Shown piece by piece: positions 17,588 through 24,605 of a DNA stretch of 64,000 nucleotides. This DNA comes from an uncultured Gammaproteobacteria bacterium (GTDB taxonomy: Bacteria > Cyanobacteriota > Vampirovibrionia > Gastranaerophilales > Gastranaerophilaceae), in assembly GCA_964467625.1 (NCBI GenBank), contig CAYXRM010000001.1, positions 516,986-580,985 of the forward strand, written 5' to 3'. Under the pieces are notes generated by a model. It was not told where the DNA came from and searched no databases. It worked only from the letters and a program-made list of their open reading frames with translations. The translations under genes and the position numbers were made by a program. How positions within the stretch are numbered: the stretch's first letter is position 1; every line of letters begins with the position of its first letter.

Positions 17588-18316
17588 ATGGGTATAATTG
17601 TTAAAAATTTGGTTAAATCTTTTGACGGTAAAAAAGTTTTAGATGAAGTTTCCTTTTCGGTGCAGGACGGTGAAACTCTTGGAGTTGTCGGTTTTTCAGG
17701 AAGTGGAAAATCTACGCTTTTAAAAATTATCTCCAACCTTTTATATTCTGATTCAGGGGATATTGCAACAAGTGCGGGCGCTGACATTGCAATGACATTT
17801 CAATATTCAGCTTTGTTTGATTTTTTAGATGTTTATCATAACATTGCCTTTCCTCTTTTGGAGAGAAAAGAATATAAGGGTAAATACACAAAAGATGAAA
17901 TTAAAAAAATTGTAAAAGAAAAATTGGCGCTTGTTGGCCTAGAGGGGATTGAAGAAAAATTTCCTTCTGAATTATCAGGCGGTATGCAAAAGCGTGTTGG
18001 GTTTGCCCGTGCAATTGTAACCAACCCCAAAACAATTCTTTATGATGAACCAACAGCAGGTCTTGACCCTGTAAGCTCCACTTTGATTGAAGATTATATT
18101 GTGCGCCTTAAAAATGAACTGAATGCTGCCTGTATTGTGGTGACACACCAAATGTCCACAATTAAAAGGGCATGCGATAATGTAATTTTATTGTATGAAG
18201 GAAAAATTGTTTTTCAAGGGAAAACAGAAGAATTTTTAAAAGGCGACAACCCTTACACAAAACAGTTTATAGAGGCATCTTTAGACGGGCCTATGGAAAT
18301 TAAATCAGCGATATAA
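17588..18316 (+). CDS. mlaF: Mla-type ABC transporter ATP-binding protein
   Basis: 242 aa. Walker A GFSGSGKST, signature LSGGMQKRV, Walker B ILYDEPTAGLD. Confidence 0.85.
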   Translation: MGIIVKNLVKSFDGKKVLDEVSFSVQDGETLGVVGFSGSGKSTLLKIISNLLYSDSGDIATSAGADIAMTFQYSALFDFLDVYHNIAFPLLERKEYKGKYTKDEIKKIVKEKLALVGLEGIEEKFPSELSGGMQKRVGFARAIVTNPKTILYDEPTAGLDPVSSTLIEDYIVRLKNELNAACIVVTHQMSTIKRACDNVILLYEGKIVFQGKTEEFLKGDNPYTKQFIEASLDGPMEIKSAI

Positions 18317-18445: not shown

Positions 18446-19825
18446 ATGGCTAAATATATTTTTCACAGTGAAAAAAGCAAAACAACATGCGCAGAATGCA
18501 CAAAACTGGATGGGAAGGTCTATGGCGATATAAACAATATTCCAAAATTGCCAATTCATCCAAATTGCAGATGTTGGATAGAAACTATTGAAGATAAAAA
18601 ATCAACAAGTCACCCTTGCGATTGCAGGAAAAGATTGGAAGTTATTCAAAATAATATAGAAAATCTTATTATTAATTTAGGTAATATATCAAAAAGTATA
18701 AATAATGAAATATATGAAACAGAAATTAAGATTGATGATGCGAAAGAAAACAACAATAAAAAAGTAAATCTTCAAAAGGTACAAAATAAATTGGTAAATC
18801 TAAAGGAAGAATTTCAAACGTTTACTAAACAAACAAAAGATTTAAACACGGATATTTTATTTTTAAAAGATAATGCAAACGAGCTTGAACACACAAAAGA
18901 AGAATGCAATATAGATAAAGAATTAAGTGAAATAAATAAAAAAGCAAAAACTTTTTTAAGTGAAATCAATAGATATTCTGAAAACTTAAAGCAATTAAAA
19001 GAAGATGTTAATTGGGTTGAGAGAGCTGAAGCATTGAAACAAAACGGAACTACAACAGGTATTGCCGCAGATGTTGATATCGGTTCTAAAACTTCTAAAA
19101 ATACTAATTGGTTTGGGAAGGTTGAATTGAGTGAAAAGGAAGTAAATAAAAATGTTGACTATAAGCAAAAAGCAATAGAATTTGCTATAGGTAATAACTA
19201 TAATAAAATCTTGTATAAAGCTGCAAAAAAATTTTCAGGAGAAGACACTGCAGGCATGCTTGATATAGCCCATGAAAAAAGAAATGATGAAGAATATACA
19301 AAAGATGCAATTAAATTAAAGAATTGGGATGATCCAAGAGTTGCATCAAATAAGAAGAAAATAAAAGAAAAAGTATCAAAAGAATTTAAGGATTATGGGT
19401 TTAACATAGATGAAATCCCCGGATATTTCTTTAAAAGTACTTCTGAACCCGTTCAAAGACTTATTCAAAATGAAGATTTTAGAAATATTATAAGAAAACA
19501 TAAGGCGAATATTTTAAAAGGAGAAAATTTTTCTGGCGGTTTTCCAGAGTATACTAACCAAACAAATGCTCCTTGGTTGATTAATAAAATGTTGAAAGAA
19601 AACAATTTTAAAAATGCTTTTGGAATAGTTGAACTTTTGACCCCTTTCTTTGATAAAGAGGGTAATTTGCATATTAAAATGTTTGATACTTATGATTTTA
19701 ATAAAGGTGAAAATATTCTTGTGGAAGCAGGCAGAGTTAAAATGCTAGAAAAAGAATTAAAACCCTTTTTTACAATCCATGATATAATTATCAAAAAAGA
19801 AGAGCTTAAATATTTTGGGTTGTAA
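18446..19825 (+). CDS. MuF/SPP1-gp7-motif protein with coiled coil and unknown C-terminal domain (candidate polymorphic toxin)
   Basis: 459 aa. Residues 15-44 (CAECTKLDGKVYGDINNIPKLPIHPNCRCW) match the C-terminal zinc-ribbon-like signature of the phage Mu F / SPP1 gp7 head morphogenesis domain. Residues ~60-200 are heptad-rich coiled coil. I do not recognise residues ~200-459. No signal peptide. Confidence 0.5.
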   Translation: MAKYIFHSEKSKTTCAECTKLDGKVYGDINNIPKLPIHPNCRCWIETIEDKKSTSHPCDCRKRLEVIQNNIENLIINLGNISKSINNEIYETEIKIDDAKENNNKKVNLQKVQNKLVNLKEEFQTFTKQTKDLNTDILFLKDNANELEHTKEECNIDKELSEINKKAKTFLSEINRYSENLKQLKEDVNWVERAEALKQNGTTTGIAADVDIGSKTSKNTNWFGKVELSEKEVNKNVDYKQKAIEFAIGNNYNKILYKAAKKFSGEDTAGMLDIAHEKRNDEEYTKDAIKLKNWDDPRVASNKKKIKEKVSKEFKDYGFNIDEIPGYFFKSTSEPVQRLIQNEDFRNIIRKHKANILKGENFSGGFPEYTNQTNAPWLINKMLKENNFKNAFGIVELLTPFFDKEGNLHIKMFDTYDFNKGENILVEAGRVKMLEKELKPFFTIHDIIIKKEELKYFGL

Positions 19826-19830
19826 AAAAG
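19761..19830 (+). repeat. Junction repeat, copy A (intact: toxin 3' end plus start of next gene)
   Basis: Encodes KPFFTIHDIIIKKEELKYFGL* and overlaps TTG-GGT-TGT-AAA (MGCK) of the next ORF. Related copies lie at 20385-20462 and 22322-22400. Confidence 0.7.
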
Positions 19831-20381: not shown

Positions 20382-20384
20382 CTA

Positions 20385-20462
20385 AAACCTTTTTTTTACC
20401 ATACATGATATAATTATCAAAAAAGAAGAACTTTAACACTTATGGGGTGTAAAATGCAAAAA
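20385..20462 (+). repeat. Junction repeat, copy B (orphan toxin tail plus MGCK start)
   Basis: 20386-20436 reads NLFFTIHDIIIKKEEL*. That gives 14 of 16 residues identical to the tail of the 459-aa protein, closed by an AAA to TAA change relative to copy C. ATG-GGG-TGT-AAA follows. Confidence 0.65.
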
Positions 20463-21197
20463 AGAAACGTTGCATACATACTAATGATTATTATCAAAAT
20501 TATAATGATTATAATATTTGTGCCTTTTTCTTTTGAGCTTATTTTTGGCTCGCTTTCTCAGCCATATGAAACTGTGGTACAAAATGCATCTATAATTTTA
20601 ATTGGGCTTATTCCTGTTTTGATATGCCACTTTCTTTCAAAGTGGGTAAAAAAAACAACTAATATTTTTGTTAAAATATGTTCAATATTATTATCTGCTT
20701 TTTTATTGCTTATACTTCCCATATATGCACTGATCGGGTTGTTTAATTGTGCTTTGATTTGTGATGATCCGCCTATAAACCCTTATAATAAGTCAAGATA
20801 TGAAGTAATGCTTTCAAAGATGCCAAGTGCAAAAGAGCGTGCCAAACATTTTCCACATAGAATTCCAAAAGATGCTAAAGATTATTATTTTCTCCGTGAA
20901 TGGTCTTTTAGTGGATATAATGTGCATTATTTAAAATTTAGTACAAATGAAAATTATATTAATAAAATAATTAATGATAACAAAGATAAAATTGTTCATA
21001 AATTAAATTCAAACAATGTGGATGATTATTATAAATTCGTTCCATATAGGGCGCTGAGCGATAGTGCCAATTGCACTATATACATTTTAAAAAATGAAAA
21101 CAACGACAATGATTATACACCAGGAATTATAACTTCAAAATCAAATGAAATTCTTTTTTTCTATTCTAATTTTGATTTAAAGGGAAACAGATATTGA
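20442..21197 (+). CDS. Membrane-anchored protein, island paralogue 1 (candidate orphan immunity)
   Basis: 251 aa with three N-terminal TM helices and a ~143-aa soluble domain. Paralogue of 22378-23133. The true start may be the internal ATG at 20454 (GGGGTG upstream). Confidence 0.5.
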   Translation: MGCKMQKRNVAYILMIIIKIIMIIIFVPFSFELIFGSLSQPYETVVQNASIILIGLIPVLICHFLSKWVKKTTNIFVKICSILLSAFLLLILPIYALIGLFNCALICDDPPINPYNKSRYEVMLSKMPSAKERAKHFPHRIPKDAKDYYFLREWSFSGYNVHYLKFSTNENYINKIINDNKDKIVHKLNSNNVDDYYKFVPYRALSDSANCTIYILKNENNDNDYTPGIITSKSNEILFFYSNFDLKGNRY

Positions 21198-21259
21198 TAT
21201 TTATGAATAATAAATTTTTAAAATATTTAATAAAAGCGAAGGTATGATATTATAAATAC

Positions 21260-21763
21260 ATGCACAAAGAAATTTCTGGACTGATTAAATATTTGTCTTT
21301 AGTTTTTGTTCTGCAGGGCATAGCTTATATTTCCTGTTATTTTTGGATGTGTATATTTTTTAGCAGTTTAGTGGATGAACAAGATGAGTTTTTAATAAAG
21401 CTTTTCTCTTTTGATTTTTTTTATGAAATATTTCCAATAATTCTTTTTATTGTTTTGACATTTATTGCTTCTCTTTTTATTATCTTGACTAAAACATTTC
21501 TTGATAAAAAAGAAAGTAAATACCTGACTTGTTTTTTTGATAATCTTTTATACCCGACAATTGCATTGTTGATTGTAGTTTTATGCAGAATATATTTTAA
21601 TCTCTATATTTCGTACCTGATTATGTTTATCGCTATATATTTTGTGGGGTTTATAAGAAAGTTTGCAAAGCCTTTATATAATCACATATCTATTGTCATT
21701 TTTCTTTTGTGGGGATTGGTTATTTATTGCATAATGGGAAACCGTTGTATCTTTAATTTTTAA
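21260..21763 (+). CDS. Small multi-pass membrane protein
   Basis: 167 aa with 4-5 hydrophobic helices. No recognisable family and a weak RBS. Confidence 0.35.
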   Translation: MHKEISGLIKYLSLVFVLQGIAYISCYFWMCIFFSSLVDEQDEFLIKLFSFDFFYEIFPIILFIVLTFIASLFIILTKTFLDKKESKYLTCFFDNLLYPTIALLIVVLCRIYFNLYISYLIMFIAIYFVGFIRKFAKPLYNHISIVIFLLWGLVIYCIMGNRCIFNF

Positions 21764-22235
21764 ATTGTTGAAAATTTAATTCATCATCAAGAACACCATT
21801 TTGTTTATAAAAAGTATATAGATATAAAAATCCGCTCAAATCTTTTATGCGGGTTTTTATATATTCATATTTATCAGAAGCGGCAGCAAGGCAAGGAAGG
21901 TAAGGATGGCAGTTTTTTTCATAGGTTTGCTTTAATAAAATATTATGCTGTTTAATAAATTCTTCCCACTTTTCTTGAGATCTCAAAAGTTCTTCATATT
22001 CAGCTTTTGGAAGAATATCCTTTGCCCCTTTAATTGTTTTTTTAATCTCTTGATTATATTTTTCATATCCTTCATAAGTGCACAACATCATCATACGGTC
22101 TGTTTGATAGTTTGCATTAATACAATTTTGAGTTTCATTGTCAATTTTTTTAATGGTTTCACTAGATGTGCAATATGACGCAAAAGCAGGGTTGGTTGCA
22201 AATAAAAATATTGTTAAAAGAAGAAATTTTTTCAT
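21753..22235 (-). CDS. Secreted DUF1311 (LprI-like) family protein
   Basis: 160 aa with signal peptide MKKFLLLTIFLFATNPAFA. Four spaced Cys and the pattern T..MM..C......Y...I........L......L..SQ..W..F resemble DUF1311/LprI. Confidence 0.45.
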   Translation of the reverse strand: MKKFLLLTIFLFATNPAFASYCTSSETIKKIDNETQNCINANYQTDRMMMLCTYEGYEKYNQEIKKTIKGAKDILPKAEYEELLRSQEKWEEFIKQHNILLKQTYEKNCHPYLPCLAAASDKYEYIKTRIKDLSGFLYLYTFYKQNGVLDDELNFQQFKN

Positions 22236-22253
22236 AAATTAATTATAAGTTTA

Positions 22254-22377
22254 AGCGGTTTTTATATCAAGGAAAGGAAACCGCCAATTCATCCAAATTA
22301 CAAGTGTTCAAAGCAAATTTAAAAGGCTTTTTCACTGTTTGTGAGATAATAATTAAAAAAGAAGAACTTAAACACTT
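22254..22377 (+). pseudogene. Internally deleted relic of a second MuF-motif gene
   Basis: 22254-22322 reads SGFYIKERKPPIHPNYKCSKQI*, compared with LDGKVYGD..LPIHPNCRCWIE in the intact gene. 17 nt are identical (GCCAATTCATCCAAATT, 22283-22299 vs 18549-18565). In another frame, 22322-22377 reads KGFFTVCEIIIKKEELKHL, compared with the tail KPFFTIHDIIIKKEELKYF. Confidence 0.45.
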
Positions 22378-22400
22378 ATGGGATGTAAAATGCAAAAAAG
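22322..22400 (+). repeat. Junction repeat, copy C
   Basis: A tail-like segment followed by ATG-GGA-TGT-AAA-ATG-CAA-AAA-AGA-AAC, almost identical to copy B from 20421 onward. Confidence 0.65.
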
Positions 22401-23133
22401 AAACGTTGCATACATAATAATCAATATTATCAAAATCATAATGATTACTATATATACACCTTTTTCTTTTGTGCTTATTTTGTTTACTATCTGTAGTCCT
22501 TATGAAGCTATGATATGGAATATGGTTATATTTCTTATTGGGCTTGTTTTTATTTTTGCATGCCACTTTCTTTTAAAGTGTGTAAATAAAACAACCGATA
22601 TTGATACTCGAATATGTTCAATATTATTATCCATTATTCTTTTATTTATTTTACTTATATATATGTGTGCCGGGTTTCAAAAATGCACTAATATAAATTC
22701 AGATCCGCCTATAAACCCTTATAATAAGTCAAGATATAAAGCAATGCTTTCAAAAATGCCAAGTGCAAAAGAGCGTGCCAAACATTTTCCACATGGAATT
22801 CCAAAAGATGCCGCAAATTATTATTTTTTCCGTGACAGGTCTTTTTTTGAAGACAAAGAACATTATTTAAAATTCAGTGCAAATGAAAATTATATTAATA
22901 AAATAATTAATGATAACAAAGATAAAATTGTTCATAAATTCAATTTAAATAATATAAGTGATTATTATAAATTCGTTCCATATGACGGCTTAAATGACAG
23001 TGCCAATTGCACTATATACATTTTAAAAAATGAAAACAATGACAATGATTATACATCAGGAATTATAACTTCAAAATCTAATGAAATTCTTTTTTTCTAT
23101 TCCAATTTTGATTTAAAGAAAATAAGACGCTGA
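22378..23133 (+). CDS. Membrane-anchored protein, island paralogue 2 (candidate orphan immunity)
   Basis: 251 aa, colinear with 20442-21197. By manual alignment there are 46 differences in the first 108 residues and 25 in the last 143. Confidence 0.5.
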   Translation: MGCKMQKRNVAYIIINIIKIIMITIYTPFSFVLILFTICSPYEAMIWNMVIFLIGLVFIFACHFLLKCVNKTTDIDTRICSILLSIILLFILLIYMCAGFQKCTNINSDPPINPYNKSRYKAMLSKMPSAKERAKHFPHGIPKDAANYYFFRDRSFFEDKEHYLKFSANENYINKIINDNKDKIVHKFNLNNISDYYKFVPYDGLNDSANCTIYILKNENNDNDYTSGIITSKSNEILFFYSNFDLKKIRR

Positions 23134-23252: not shown

Positions 23253-24605
23253 ATGACCGTAAATAGAAAAGTTTCTTCATCTTTAAAAGTCGGGATTTTG
23301 ACGATTGGGGCGCTTCTTATTCTTATTTTTACCGTTCTTTGGATAAAAGGAAGAAGTTTATCTTCAGGGGAGAGGATTGAAGTTATTTTCCATGATATAA
23401 ACGGTATCCGTGCAGGCTCCGGCGTGCAGATGATGGGTCTTAGAATCGGGCAAATTGAAGAAATTATACCCGTTGTAAACGGTAAAGATAGTCATGTTAA
23501 AATTCGTTTTGTTATAACAGAAAAAGGGGTTAAAGTTCCGGAAGCCTCGACAATTTCAATTCAACAGTCAGGGTTAATTGGGGAACAGTTTTTGGAAGTT
23601 ATGCCCCCGAAGGTTGAATATCTTTATCTTGAAACTTCAAGAAATAAAACATTAATTGAAGAAAATCAAGAAATTTATATGGTTTTATCAAATGAACTTA
23701 AAAGAATAGGCAGAGTTGATATTGCAAATGTTATTCCAAAGGCGGCTGCCCCACTTGAATACCGTTCACAGTTGAAGGGGCAAAACGTACTTAAAATTGG
23801 ATACATTGTTGATCTTCCGGGGTTGATTTTGGATAAGGAAAATTTAAACGCAAAACTTATTCAAAATAAACTTGTTTTTGAAACAAAAAATGGGGTTAAA
23901 CTTGAGATGCCAAACACAAATTCTCCCTATACGGTGATTGAACCGATGAGAATAAGTGATTTTCTTGAATTGCAATATAAAACAGCACACTCTTTGACAT
24001 CTATGAATGAAAGAGTTATGGAGATTTTATCGGACGACTTTATTGCCGATATTAAAGAATCCATGAACAATATTAATGAAATTACCCAAAAGGCAAATTC
24101 CACAATTGAGAAGGCAAACACTTTGATTGATTCTTCAAAAGACGAAATTGATGAAATTCTTGTCCAAACTTCAATTTTGACAAAGAAACTGAATGTCTTG
24201 TCGGATAATGCAAACGCTCTTGTTTCAAGTGAGGAATTGAAGGGTGCAATTAAATCTGTTAACAGGTTTGCAAAAAATGCAAATTCATACCTTGAAAAAC
24301 CAGAAGCAAAAGAAATGTTTGAAAATTTGAATGAAATTTCAAGAAATTTGGCGGACATTTCTTGCTATGTAAACGAATTTACAGGGGATGAAAAGTTAAG
24401 AAATAATTTAAAAGAATCTGTTGAAAATATAAACAAAGCAATGAAACAGGTGAACACAAATTTGGCGGAAATAAATTCTGTAAGCGGGGAAGAAAAGCTT
24501 TCAATCAACAATGCAATAACAGACGCTATTGTGACAACAAGAAATCTTAAAAAATTCTCAGAAAAATTGAATAAAAGATTTTTATTATTCAGGTTAATGT
24601 TTTAG
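23253..24605 (+). CDS. mlaD: MCE-domain protein (MlaD-like) with long helical C-terminal extension
   Basis: 450 aa. N-terminal TM (LKVGILTIGALLILIFTVLWI). MCE domain (INGIRAGSGVQMMGLRIGQIEEI...SIQQSGLIGEQFLEV). The last ~200 aa are coiled-coil-like. Confidence 0.75.
   Translation: MTVNRKVSSSLKVGILTIGALLILIFTVLWIKGRSLSSGERIEVIFHDINGIRAGSGVQMMGLRIGQIEEIIPVVNGKDSHVKIRFVITEKGVKVPEASTISIQQSGLIGEQFLEVMPPKVEYLYLETSRNKTLIEENQEIYMVLSNELKRIGRVDIANVIPKAAAPLEYRSQLKGQNVLKIGYIVDLPGLILDKENLNAKLIQNKLVFETKNGVKLEMPNTNSPYTVIEPMRISDFLELQYKTAHSLTSMNERVMEILSDDFIADIKESMNNINEITQKANSTIEKANTLIDSSKDEIDEILVQTSILTKKLNVLSDNANALVSSEELKGAIKSVNRFAKNANSYLEKPEAKEMFENLNEISRNLADISCYVNEFTGDEKLRNNLKESVENINKAMKQVNTNLAEINSVSGEEKLSINNAITDAIVTTRNLKKFSEKLNKRFLLFRLMF

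Follow-up and report, generated by a model that had tools for sequence, protein, structure and literature searches.

A probable remnant of a second toxin gene in front of an orphan immunity-like gene of a gut melainabacterium

The stretch 22278-22388 of the DNA analysed here (a window of 64,000 nt in full) is most likely a dead second toxin gene, in which a deletion of about 1.2 kb fused the head of the gene to its tail. According to this reconstruction, the small chromosomal island that contains the stretch would at one time have included another full toxin-immunity module. The lost toxin would have combined a head like that of the resident 459-aa toxin, with its short MuF-type zinc motif, with a B-type C-terminal toxin domain, and its 3' end would have been overlapped over 11 nt by a membrane immunity gene, now the second of two 251-aa paralogues. 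One out-of-frame deletion, probably at a short direct repeat of the form CA(A)ATGTT, would have joined the ..PIHPN head to the 29th-from-last toxin codon, removing the coiled coil and nearly the whole toxic domain, and a separate event would have put an antisense LprI-like gene, promoter included, where the first ~35 codons had been. The immunity gene would have been kept intact as an orphan protecting against the B-type toxin of neighbours, and with it the last ~27 toxin codons, which likely provide a promoter (TGAGATAAT), a ribosome site and the overlapping start.

The island and its genomic setting

The window belongs to a genome of 1.87 Mb with 34% G+C, whose NusA shows up to 96% identity to the NusA of Candidatus Gastranaerophilales MAGs (Melainabacteria) of animal guts. 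Between mlaF (17588-18316) and mlaD (23253-24605) this genome contains a 4.9-kb island (Table 1) without any phage family among its ORFs, and in which the two 251-aa paralogues share 72% amino acid identity. In two close species (G412 and G413) the island is absent and mlaF adjoins mlaD, while in the two other near species (G410 and G411) the contig breaks just upstream of mlaD; a B-type module occurs at the mlaF-mlaD site in none of these four. No genome with an intact gene at this chromosomal site, whether conspecific or from the nearest species, was found. The relic itself is not an assembly artefact, since 1340 nt (21074-22413) are base-for-base identical in an independent Logan assembly listed for three samples. 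The look-up of the LprI-like protein led only to this same 1340-nt contig, and the exact look-up of paralogue 2 to no other contig; scanning GTDB contigs with the toxin gave a single weak and unrelated match, and scanning JGI metagenomes with the 251-aa alignment gave nothing. As a side observation on the assembly, k-mer matches between contigs C2 and C5 of this genome (G000) recur at a constant offset of 157 (e.g., 7189/7346, 20105/20262, 24058/24215 and 141425/141582). A long duplicated stretch is therefore common to both contigs, which may explain the 7.4% 'contamination' figure.

Table 1. Features of the mlaF-mlaD island, in window coordinates.
Feature	Position	Strand	Basis or remark
459-aa toxin-like gene (A-type, resident, intact)	18446-19825	+	ORF list; reference for head
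188-aa membrane protein gene			3' of toxin, 11-nt overlap with toxin
Sister stub	20384-20452	+	Mosaic: A-type tail core, B-type junction
251-aa membrane protein gene, paralogue 1	20442-21197
167-aa membrane protein gene			After paralogue 1 in island order
LprI/DUF1311-like secreted protein gene	21753-22235	-	Pfam PF07007, 19.1 bits (cut-off 22 bits)
Promoter-like TTGATA-17-TATAAT	22242-22270	-	11/12 consensus positions; 6 nt before ATG (22235) of LprI-like gene
Head relic, AAA CCG CCA ATT CAT CCA AAT T (K-P-P-I-H-P-N)	22278-22299	+	20/22 nt to 18545-18566
Deletion junction ACAAGTGTT	22300-22308	+	Claimed by both head and tail homologies
Tail relic of B-type toxin, QVFKANLKGFFTVCEIIIKKEELKH..	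22301-22388	+	Tail profile; L065 match
Extended -10-like element TGAGATAAT in tail	22342-22350	+	Candidate promoter of orphan immunity gene
251-aa paralogue 2, orphan immunity-like membrane protein	22378-23133	+	Intact ORF

The tail relic and the allele it comes from

A toxin origin of the tail is beyond doubt at both the protein and the DNA level. A profile of the last ~48 residues of the toxin domain, made from proteins of other genomes only, matches 22301-22381 with E=6.5e-10 (36.8 bits), and after the relic and a sister stub at 20384 the next match in the window has E=0.7. At the DNA level, 22300-22354 agrees with positions 1389-1443 of L065, a locus of another Gastranaerophilales assembly, at 51 of 55 nt with an exact run of 39 nt, and L044 matches likewise. 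The peptide KGFFTVCEIIIKKEELK of the relic is identical over 17 residues to that of the intact L065 toxin. The tail frame gives ...QVFKANLKGFFTVCEIIIKKEELKHLW and, as originally predicted, runs into the ATG-GGA-TGT-AAA of the next gene at 22378, with the former toxin stop being the TAA at 22386-22388. The relic carries one extra base near 22376, which is also found in the stub at 20384.

The original prediction had set this tail in parallel with that of the resident 459-aa gene, the end of which does align with the relic (19757-19827 with 22319-22390). Its reading as a toxin tail is borne out, but the allele is a different one: over the tail core the relic agrees with L065 at 38 of 40 positions and with the resident tail (tail 1) at 29 of 40, and the possibility that it is a decayed copy of the resident tail was rejected on these counts. 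Judged by its sequence, the relic tail is the end of a different, 'B-type' toxin allele. The homology also begins earlier than had been proposed, at 22300/22301, which is seven codons further upstream and abuts the head match described below. In the predicted model of the 230-aa toxin domain, the 27 codons of the relic correspond to the last strand and helix, and according to this model they cannot fold or make a working protein.

These homologies bear on a reading in which the stretch is the shared regulatory region of the LprI-like and 251-aa genes, without coding ancestry. Promoter-like elements are indeed present on both strands, but regulatory use and coding ancestry are not exclusive, and the tail homology refutes this reading for 22300-22388. 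For that part it also tells against the alternative considered at the outset that 22236-22377 is promoter region only. As an account of the whole stretch, a purely regulatory origin is thus extremely improbable.

The probable head relic

The head frame gives ...KLIISLSGFYIKERKPPIHPNYKCSKQI*, ending at the TAA at 22320-22322, and codes for part of the MuF-type zinc motif (..KLPIHPNC[KR]C..). The peptides and frames originally quoted for both parts are present in the sequence as described, and so is the exact 17-mer GCCAATTCATCCAAATT at 22283-22299 with its extension to 23 of 26 identical nt; its copy in the toxin gene is located at 18550-18566, one base further than the 18549-18565 first given. 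Allowing up to two substitutions, this 17-mer occurs in only these two places of the 1.87-Mb genome. The P-I-H-P-N spelling with the extra Ile is common to the relic, the resident toxin, L065 and the P0002 group, while heads outside this subfamily read KPHPNC. Upstream of 22278 the identity to the head is at random level. The parallel drawn there between SGFYIKER and DGKVYGD has no support beyond chance (12 of 33 nt by hand count), and SGFYIKER overlaps the minus-strand promoter-like site. A search for the missing 5' part of the head elsewhere in the island, including the spacer after paralogue 1 and the LprI-like gene, on both strands, gave only low-complexity matches.

The comparison with shuffled controls called for in the original prediction gave a Smith-Waterman score of 37 for 22236-22318 against the toxin gene. 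Among 2000 dinucleotide shuffles, 4 scored at least as high, as did 2 of 749 real 83-nt tiles taken from the window; elsewhere in the island, gapped A/T-rich alignments attain 37-43. The shorter segment 22236-22299 scored 34, a value attained by 17 of 5000 shuffles when these were aligned to the whole gene and by none of 5000 when the head alone was used. Because raw scores in A/T-rich DNA overstate the evidence from alignment, the case for the head rests on the composition of the 17-mer and on its position. In the 3.74 Mb of both strands, about 17 positions match the toxin gene exactly over at least 17 nt, nearly all of them in A-rich low-complexity sequence; for the strand concerned and a segment of 64 nt, the chance of the 17-mer is ~2e-4. 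When the six-frame segments of the window were scored with a head profile from 18 other genomes, the relic came first among the 3021 non-self segments, with 7.4 bits and E=0.8. The head consists of 22 nt and the protein profile is by itself insignificant; taken together, the sequence comparisons indicate a head relic that is short yet better than chance, with support limited to about seven codons.

The alternative at this point is that only the tail is a toxin remnant, an ordinary 3' stub that moved back together with its immunity gene when an incoming module took the place of the old toxin, and that the 17-mer arose by chance in promoter DNA of the LprI-like gene. Such a reading would be in keeping with the E-value of the head profile, with the chance alignments of equal raw score nearby, with the sister stub at 20384, where a tail stands without a head, and with the promoter-like character of 22242-22270 on the other strand. 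It has to contend, however, with a 17-mer that is C-rich, unique in 3.74 Mb apart from the toxin head and improbable by chance at the level given above. The match also coincides with the best-conserved motif of the head, lies 5' of the tail with both on one strand, and ends exactly where the tail homology starts, with a frame offset that fits a single deletion. We therefore regard a chance head match as unlikely, and retain the fusion of a true head with a true tail as the preferred explanation.

The junction and the arithmetic of the proposed deletion

Head homology stops at 22299 and tail homology starts at 22300/22301, so that the two boundaries abut with order and strand kept. The junction ACAAGTGTT agrees at 8 of 9 positions with the L065 sequence before the tail, ACAAATGTT, and at 6 of 9 with the head of toxin 1, GCAGATGTT, and the junction zone 22300-22314 has 3-4 mismatches to L065. 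The junction region includes a CA(A)ATGTT-like stretch. Candidates for the direct repeat are GTAAATGC and ACAAATGTT in L065, TGTAAATGTTGG in L111, the natural heads of which read TGT AAA TGT TGG, and GCAGATGTT in toxin 1. A deletion at microhomology is a reconstruction and would be the probable mechanism.

Measured on L065, the missing piece amounts to 1219 nt, i.e., 3n+1. In the relic, C22301 is both the third base of a head codon (TAC at 22299) and the first base of a tail codon (CAA at 22301), giving a frame offset of +2. A deletion of 1219 nt (1 mod 3) therefore yields the observed offset without any further indel, and a single out-of-frame deletion accounts for all of 22278-22388 except the extra base near 22376. 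The proposal that head and tail were fused with the loss of roughly 1.2 kb is thus supported by both the size and the frame. If the single deletion is correct, an undeleted conspecific copy would read ..CCGCCAATTCATCCAAATT.. / ..CCAATTCATCCAAATTGCAAATGTTGG.. in the head and ..ACAAATGTT.. before the tail.

The 5' side asks for more. The first ~35 codons of the head are absent, and the LprI-like gene and its minus-strand promoter stand in their place. At least one more event, whether insertion or another deletion, must be assumed on this side, and it constitutes the weakest part of the explanation.

Intact counterparts and the toxin family

The combination that the relic implies exists in intact form elsewhere. 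The L065 toxin contains, in one gene, a MuF-type head (..DIPKLPIHPNCKCWIE.., KLPIHPNCKC) and the exact KGFFTVCEIIIKKEELK tail. This gene, cut by the end of its contig, codes for at least 491 aa, with the start ..HSEQTKTTCEECKKHDNKVYYDIKDIPKLPIHPNCKCWIETIEDKK.. and the end ...KGFFTVCEIIIKKEELKQYGL; the toxins of L044 and L065 both end ...RRQMLKGNLKGFFTVCEIIIKKEELKQYGL. A homologue of the 251-aa gene overlaps the toxin gene by 11 nt at L065 and L044, and its 313-aa product is the nearest relative that the 251-aa protein has in other genomes (47% identity). At another locus (L024), a MuF-headed toxin is directly followed by a 232-aa 251-like gene. By sequence relationship, the partner of the B-type toxin elsewhere is a 251-like protein, and paralogue 2 appears to be the cognate partner of the lost B-type toxin. 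The search for an intact gene in relatives proposed in the original prediction was thus successful insofar as L065 holds one upstream of a 251-aa homologue, although in another organism and at a different chromosomal site. The occurrence of head, tail and 251-like homologue together at L065 also supports the earlier suggestion that the island once contained a second complete module.

Identity between the resident and L065 toxins is ~65-70% over the N-terminal ~200 aa, 25-35% in the middle and ~70% over the last 60 aa. The two proteins are, as far as these identities tell, mosaics of each other with the architecture of polymorphic toxins. The head motif is common to proteins of 228-474 aa of relatives that differ in their C-termini. 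Among 401 genomes of the order, 100 carry the C-terminal domain at E<=1e-10, and many of its matches are open frames of only 46-130 aa, i.e., stubs (e.g., L004, L042, L052 and L062). Toxin-tail stubs were also noted at L052 (G219:C1) 1874-2035, on the minus strand of L062 at 1313-1465, and at G413:C16:347-563; among these, one directly follows a 597-aa toxin and repeats its tail, one lies on the opposite strand and one is broken by a stop. In a further protein, the 269-aa P0065 from an ENA metagenome, the N-terminal portion of a phage-type integrase is fused to the last ~60 residues of the toxin domain (..LDEKGNLHIKMYDTYDFN...HDIIIPKDILDEIWK), which suggests that a mobile element inserted into a toxin gene or recombined with one.

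The C-terminal 230 residues of the resident toxin (19133-19822) are predicted with high confidence to form an alpha/beta domain (pLDDT 91, pTM 0.87). This domain has no match in the PDB by fold (best E 0.65) or by sequence profile and belongs to no Pfam family, and therefore no activity can be assigned to it. The terms 'toxin' and 'immunity' are used here on the grounds of gene architecture and context.

The sister stub and recombination within the island

The stub preceding paralogue 1, which retains a tail but no head, is matched by the tail profile at 20386-20433 (E=1.2e-6). Its core agrees with tail 1 at 35 of 40 positions and with the relic at 27 of 40, while it resembles the relic at the junction (33 of 35) and is identical to it at the gene start (18 of 18). 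The combination of an A-type core with a B-type junction points to a crossover inside the conserved ATCAAAAAAGAAGA stretch. In-place decay and recombination or displacement of modules thus both seem to act in this island.

The sister stub also lends some weight to the idea that the head and the tail of the relic are both real and were joined in two or more unrelated steps, e.g., by patching of a stub from the resident head at 18550, in which case a full second gene with its own head need never have stood here. The head piece equals the resident head over 17 nt and the tail derives from another allele, and the stub at 20384 is demonstrably an A-type/B-type recombinant, showing that patchwork occurs in the island. 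Polymorphic toxins within one genome normally share their N-terminal part, however, and a resident-type head on a B-type toxin is what such sharing would lead one to expect. Abutting boundaries, a shared short repeat and exact frame arithmetic are what a single deletion would produce, and the intact L065 gene joins this type of head to this type of tail. A multi-step origin is for these reasons slightly less likely still than a chance match of the head, and one internal deletion remains the explanation that we favour.

Candidate promoters and the persistence of the tail

The survival of the tail can be understood from what it may provide to the gene that follows. TGAGATAAT lies 27 nt before the ATG at 22378. 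In all three island copies and in L065, an extended -10 is spelled by codons for H/C-D/E-I-I; tails 1 and 2 read TGATATAAT (19780-19788 and 20407-20415), and the form in the relic and L065 is TGAGATAAT. In 19 of 19 [HC][DE]II tails (the three island copies, L065 and 15 other loci), ATA encodes the first Ile, whereas the share of ATA among Ile codons genome-wide is 26% and neighbouring Ile codons of the tails vary synonymously. This fixation of ATA points to a promoter, as a hint and not as a test, the sequences being related. In addition, toxin stop and immunity start overlap (ATGGGnTGTAA). The tail would thus survive because it supplies the orphan immunity gene with a predicted promoter, a ribosome site and its start. 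Neither 251-aa gene is disrupted, and dN/dS between the paralogues is 0.58 over the full length and 0.41 for the soluble half.

In the public annotation, paralogue 2 begins at its second ATG (22390) and has 247 aa, while paralogue 1 is called with 251 aa. The MGCK start is fixed by the overlap with the ..YGL* end of the toxin and is also kept in the 188-aa and 313-aa genes. On the other strand, the promoter-like site lies so close to the ATG of the LprI-like gene (6 nt) that the mRNA would have no leader or almost none.

A broader, tentative idea is that the conserved last ~20 codons of the toxin might serve three jobs, namely final strand of the domain, promoter of the immunity gene and 3' homology arm for cassette exchange. 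Possibly, the H/C-D/E-I-I codons with the fixed ATA at the first Ile would reflect the second of these functions, and the conserved head and coiled coil could, with similar reserve, act as the 5' arm of the swap. If so, this would explain why stubs persist before orphan immunity genes and how the A-type/B-type recombinant stub at 20384 arose.

Comparison with known systems

Several features of the resident toxin and its relatives recall the MuF polymorphic toxins of temperate phages (Zhang et al., 2012, PMC3482391; Jamet et al., 2017, PMC5576092). The head contains the CxxC...HPNC[KR]C motif found at the end of the Phage_Mu_F domain, and a conserved N-terminus is combined with a variable toxic C-terminus and a downstream immunity gene, all of which were found here. 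In contrast to MuF toxins, only the last ~45 MuF residues are present (profile positions 65-110 of 112), and the score against Phage_Mu_F (PF04233) is 18.9 bits, below the Pfam cut-off of 29.6. The genes stand between mlaF and mlaD, in an island of the chromosome that has no adjacent phage genes, so that the setting is not that of a prophage. The protein does not belong to the MuF family proper.

A second parallel is offered by the orphan cdiA-CT/cdiI and rhs-CT/rhsI modules and by the displacement of Rhs C-termini (Jackson et al., 2009, PMC2935791; Poole et al., 2011, PMC3150448). As in the CDI and Rhs systems, the toxins have a constant N-terminal and a variable C-terminal part, and truncated toxin fragments with cognate immunity genes stand 3' of a full gene. 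CDI/Rhs orphans usually retain the whole toxic CT without the N-terminus, whereas the relic consists of 27 C-terminal and 7 head codons.

[quoted passage not shown] Here too, the short 3' end of a toxin gene directly precedes an intact immunity gene, 3' of a complete toxin-immunity pair in the same orientation and in an array with several immunity-type genes. The relic has the marks of an orphan-immunity stub: 3'-end homology, a next gene of the cognate type and a complete pair upstream in the same orientation. It differs from the V. cholerae stubs in also keeping a 5' head piece, which points to in-place decay, i.e., internal deletion of a complete second gene, and not to the arrival of a module that displaced the gene. 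Further differences are the toxin family, the route of delivery, which involves no T6SS, and the host, a gut melainabacterium.

By itself, the scar is an ordinary pseudogene remnant, and of an ordinary kind in toxin-immunity arrays, here in a little-known toxin family of gut Melainabacteria. What it adds is that a small island turned over whole toxin-immunity modules, giving up the weapon and keeping the shield, which is the expected footprint of toxin-mediated competition. In addition, it pairs a 251-aa membrane protein family with a defined toxin allele, that of the L065 type, as a candidate toxin-immunity pair.
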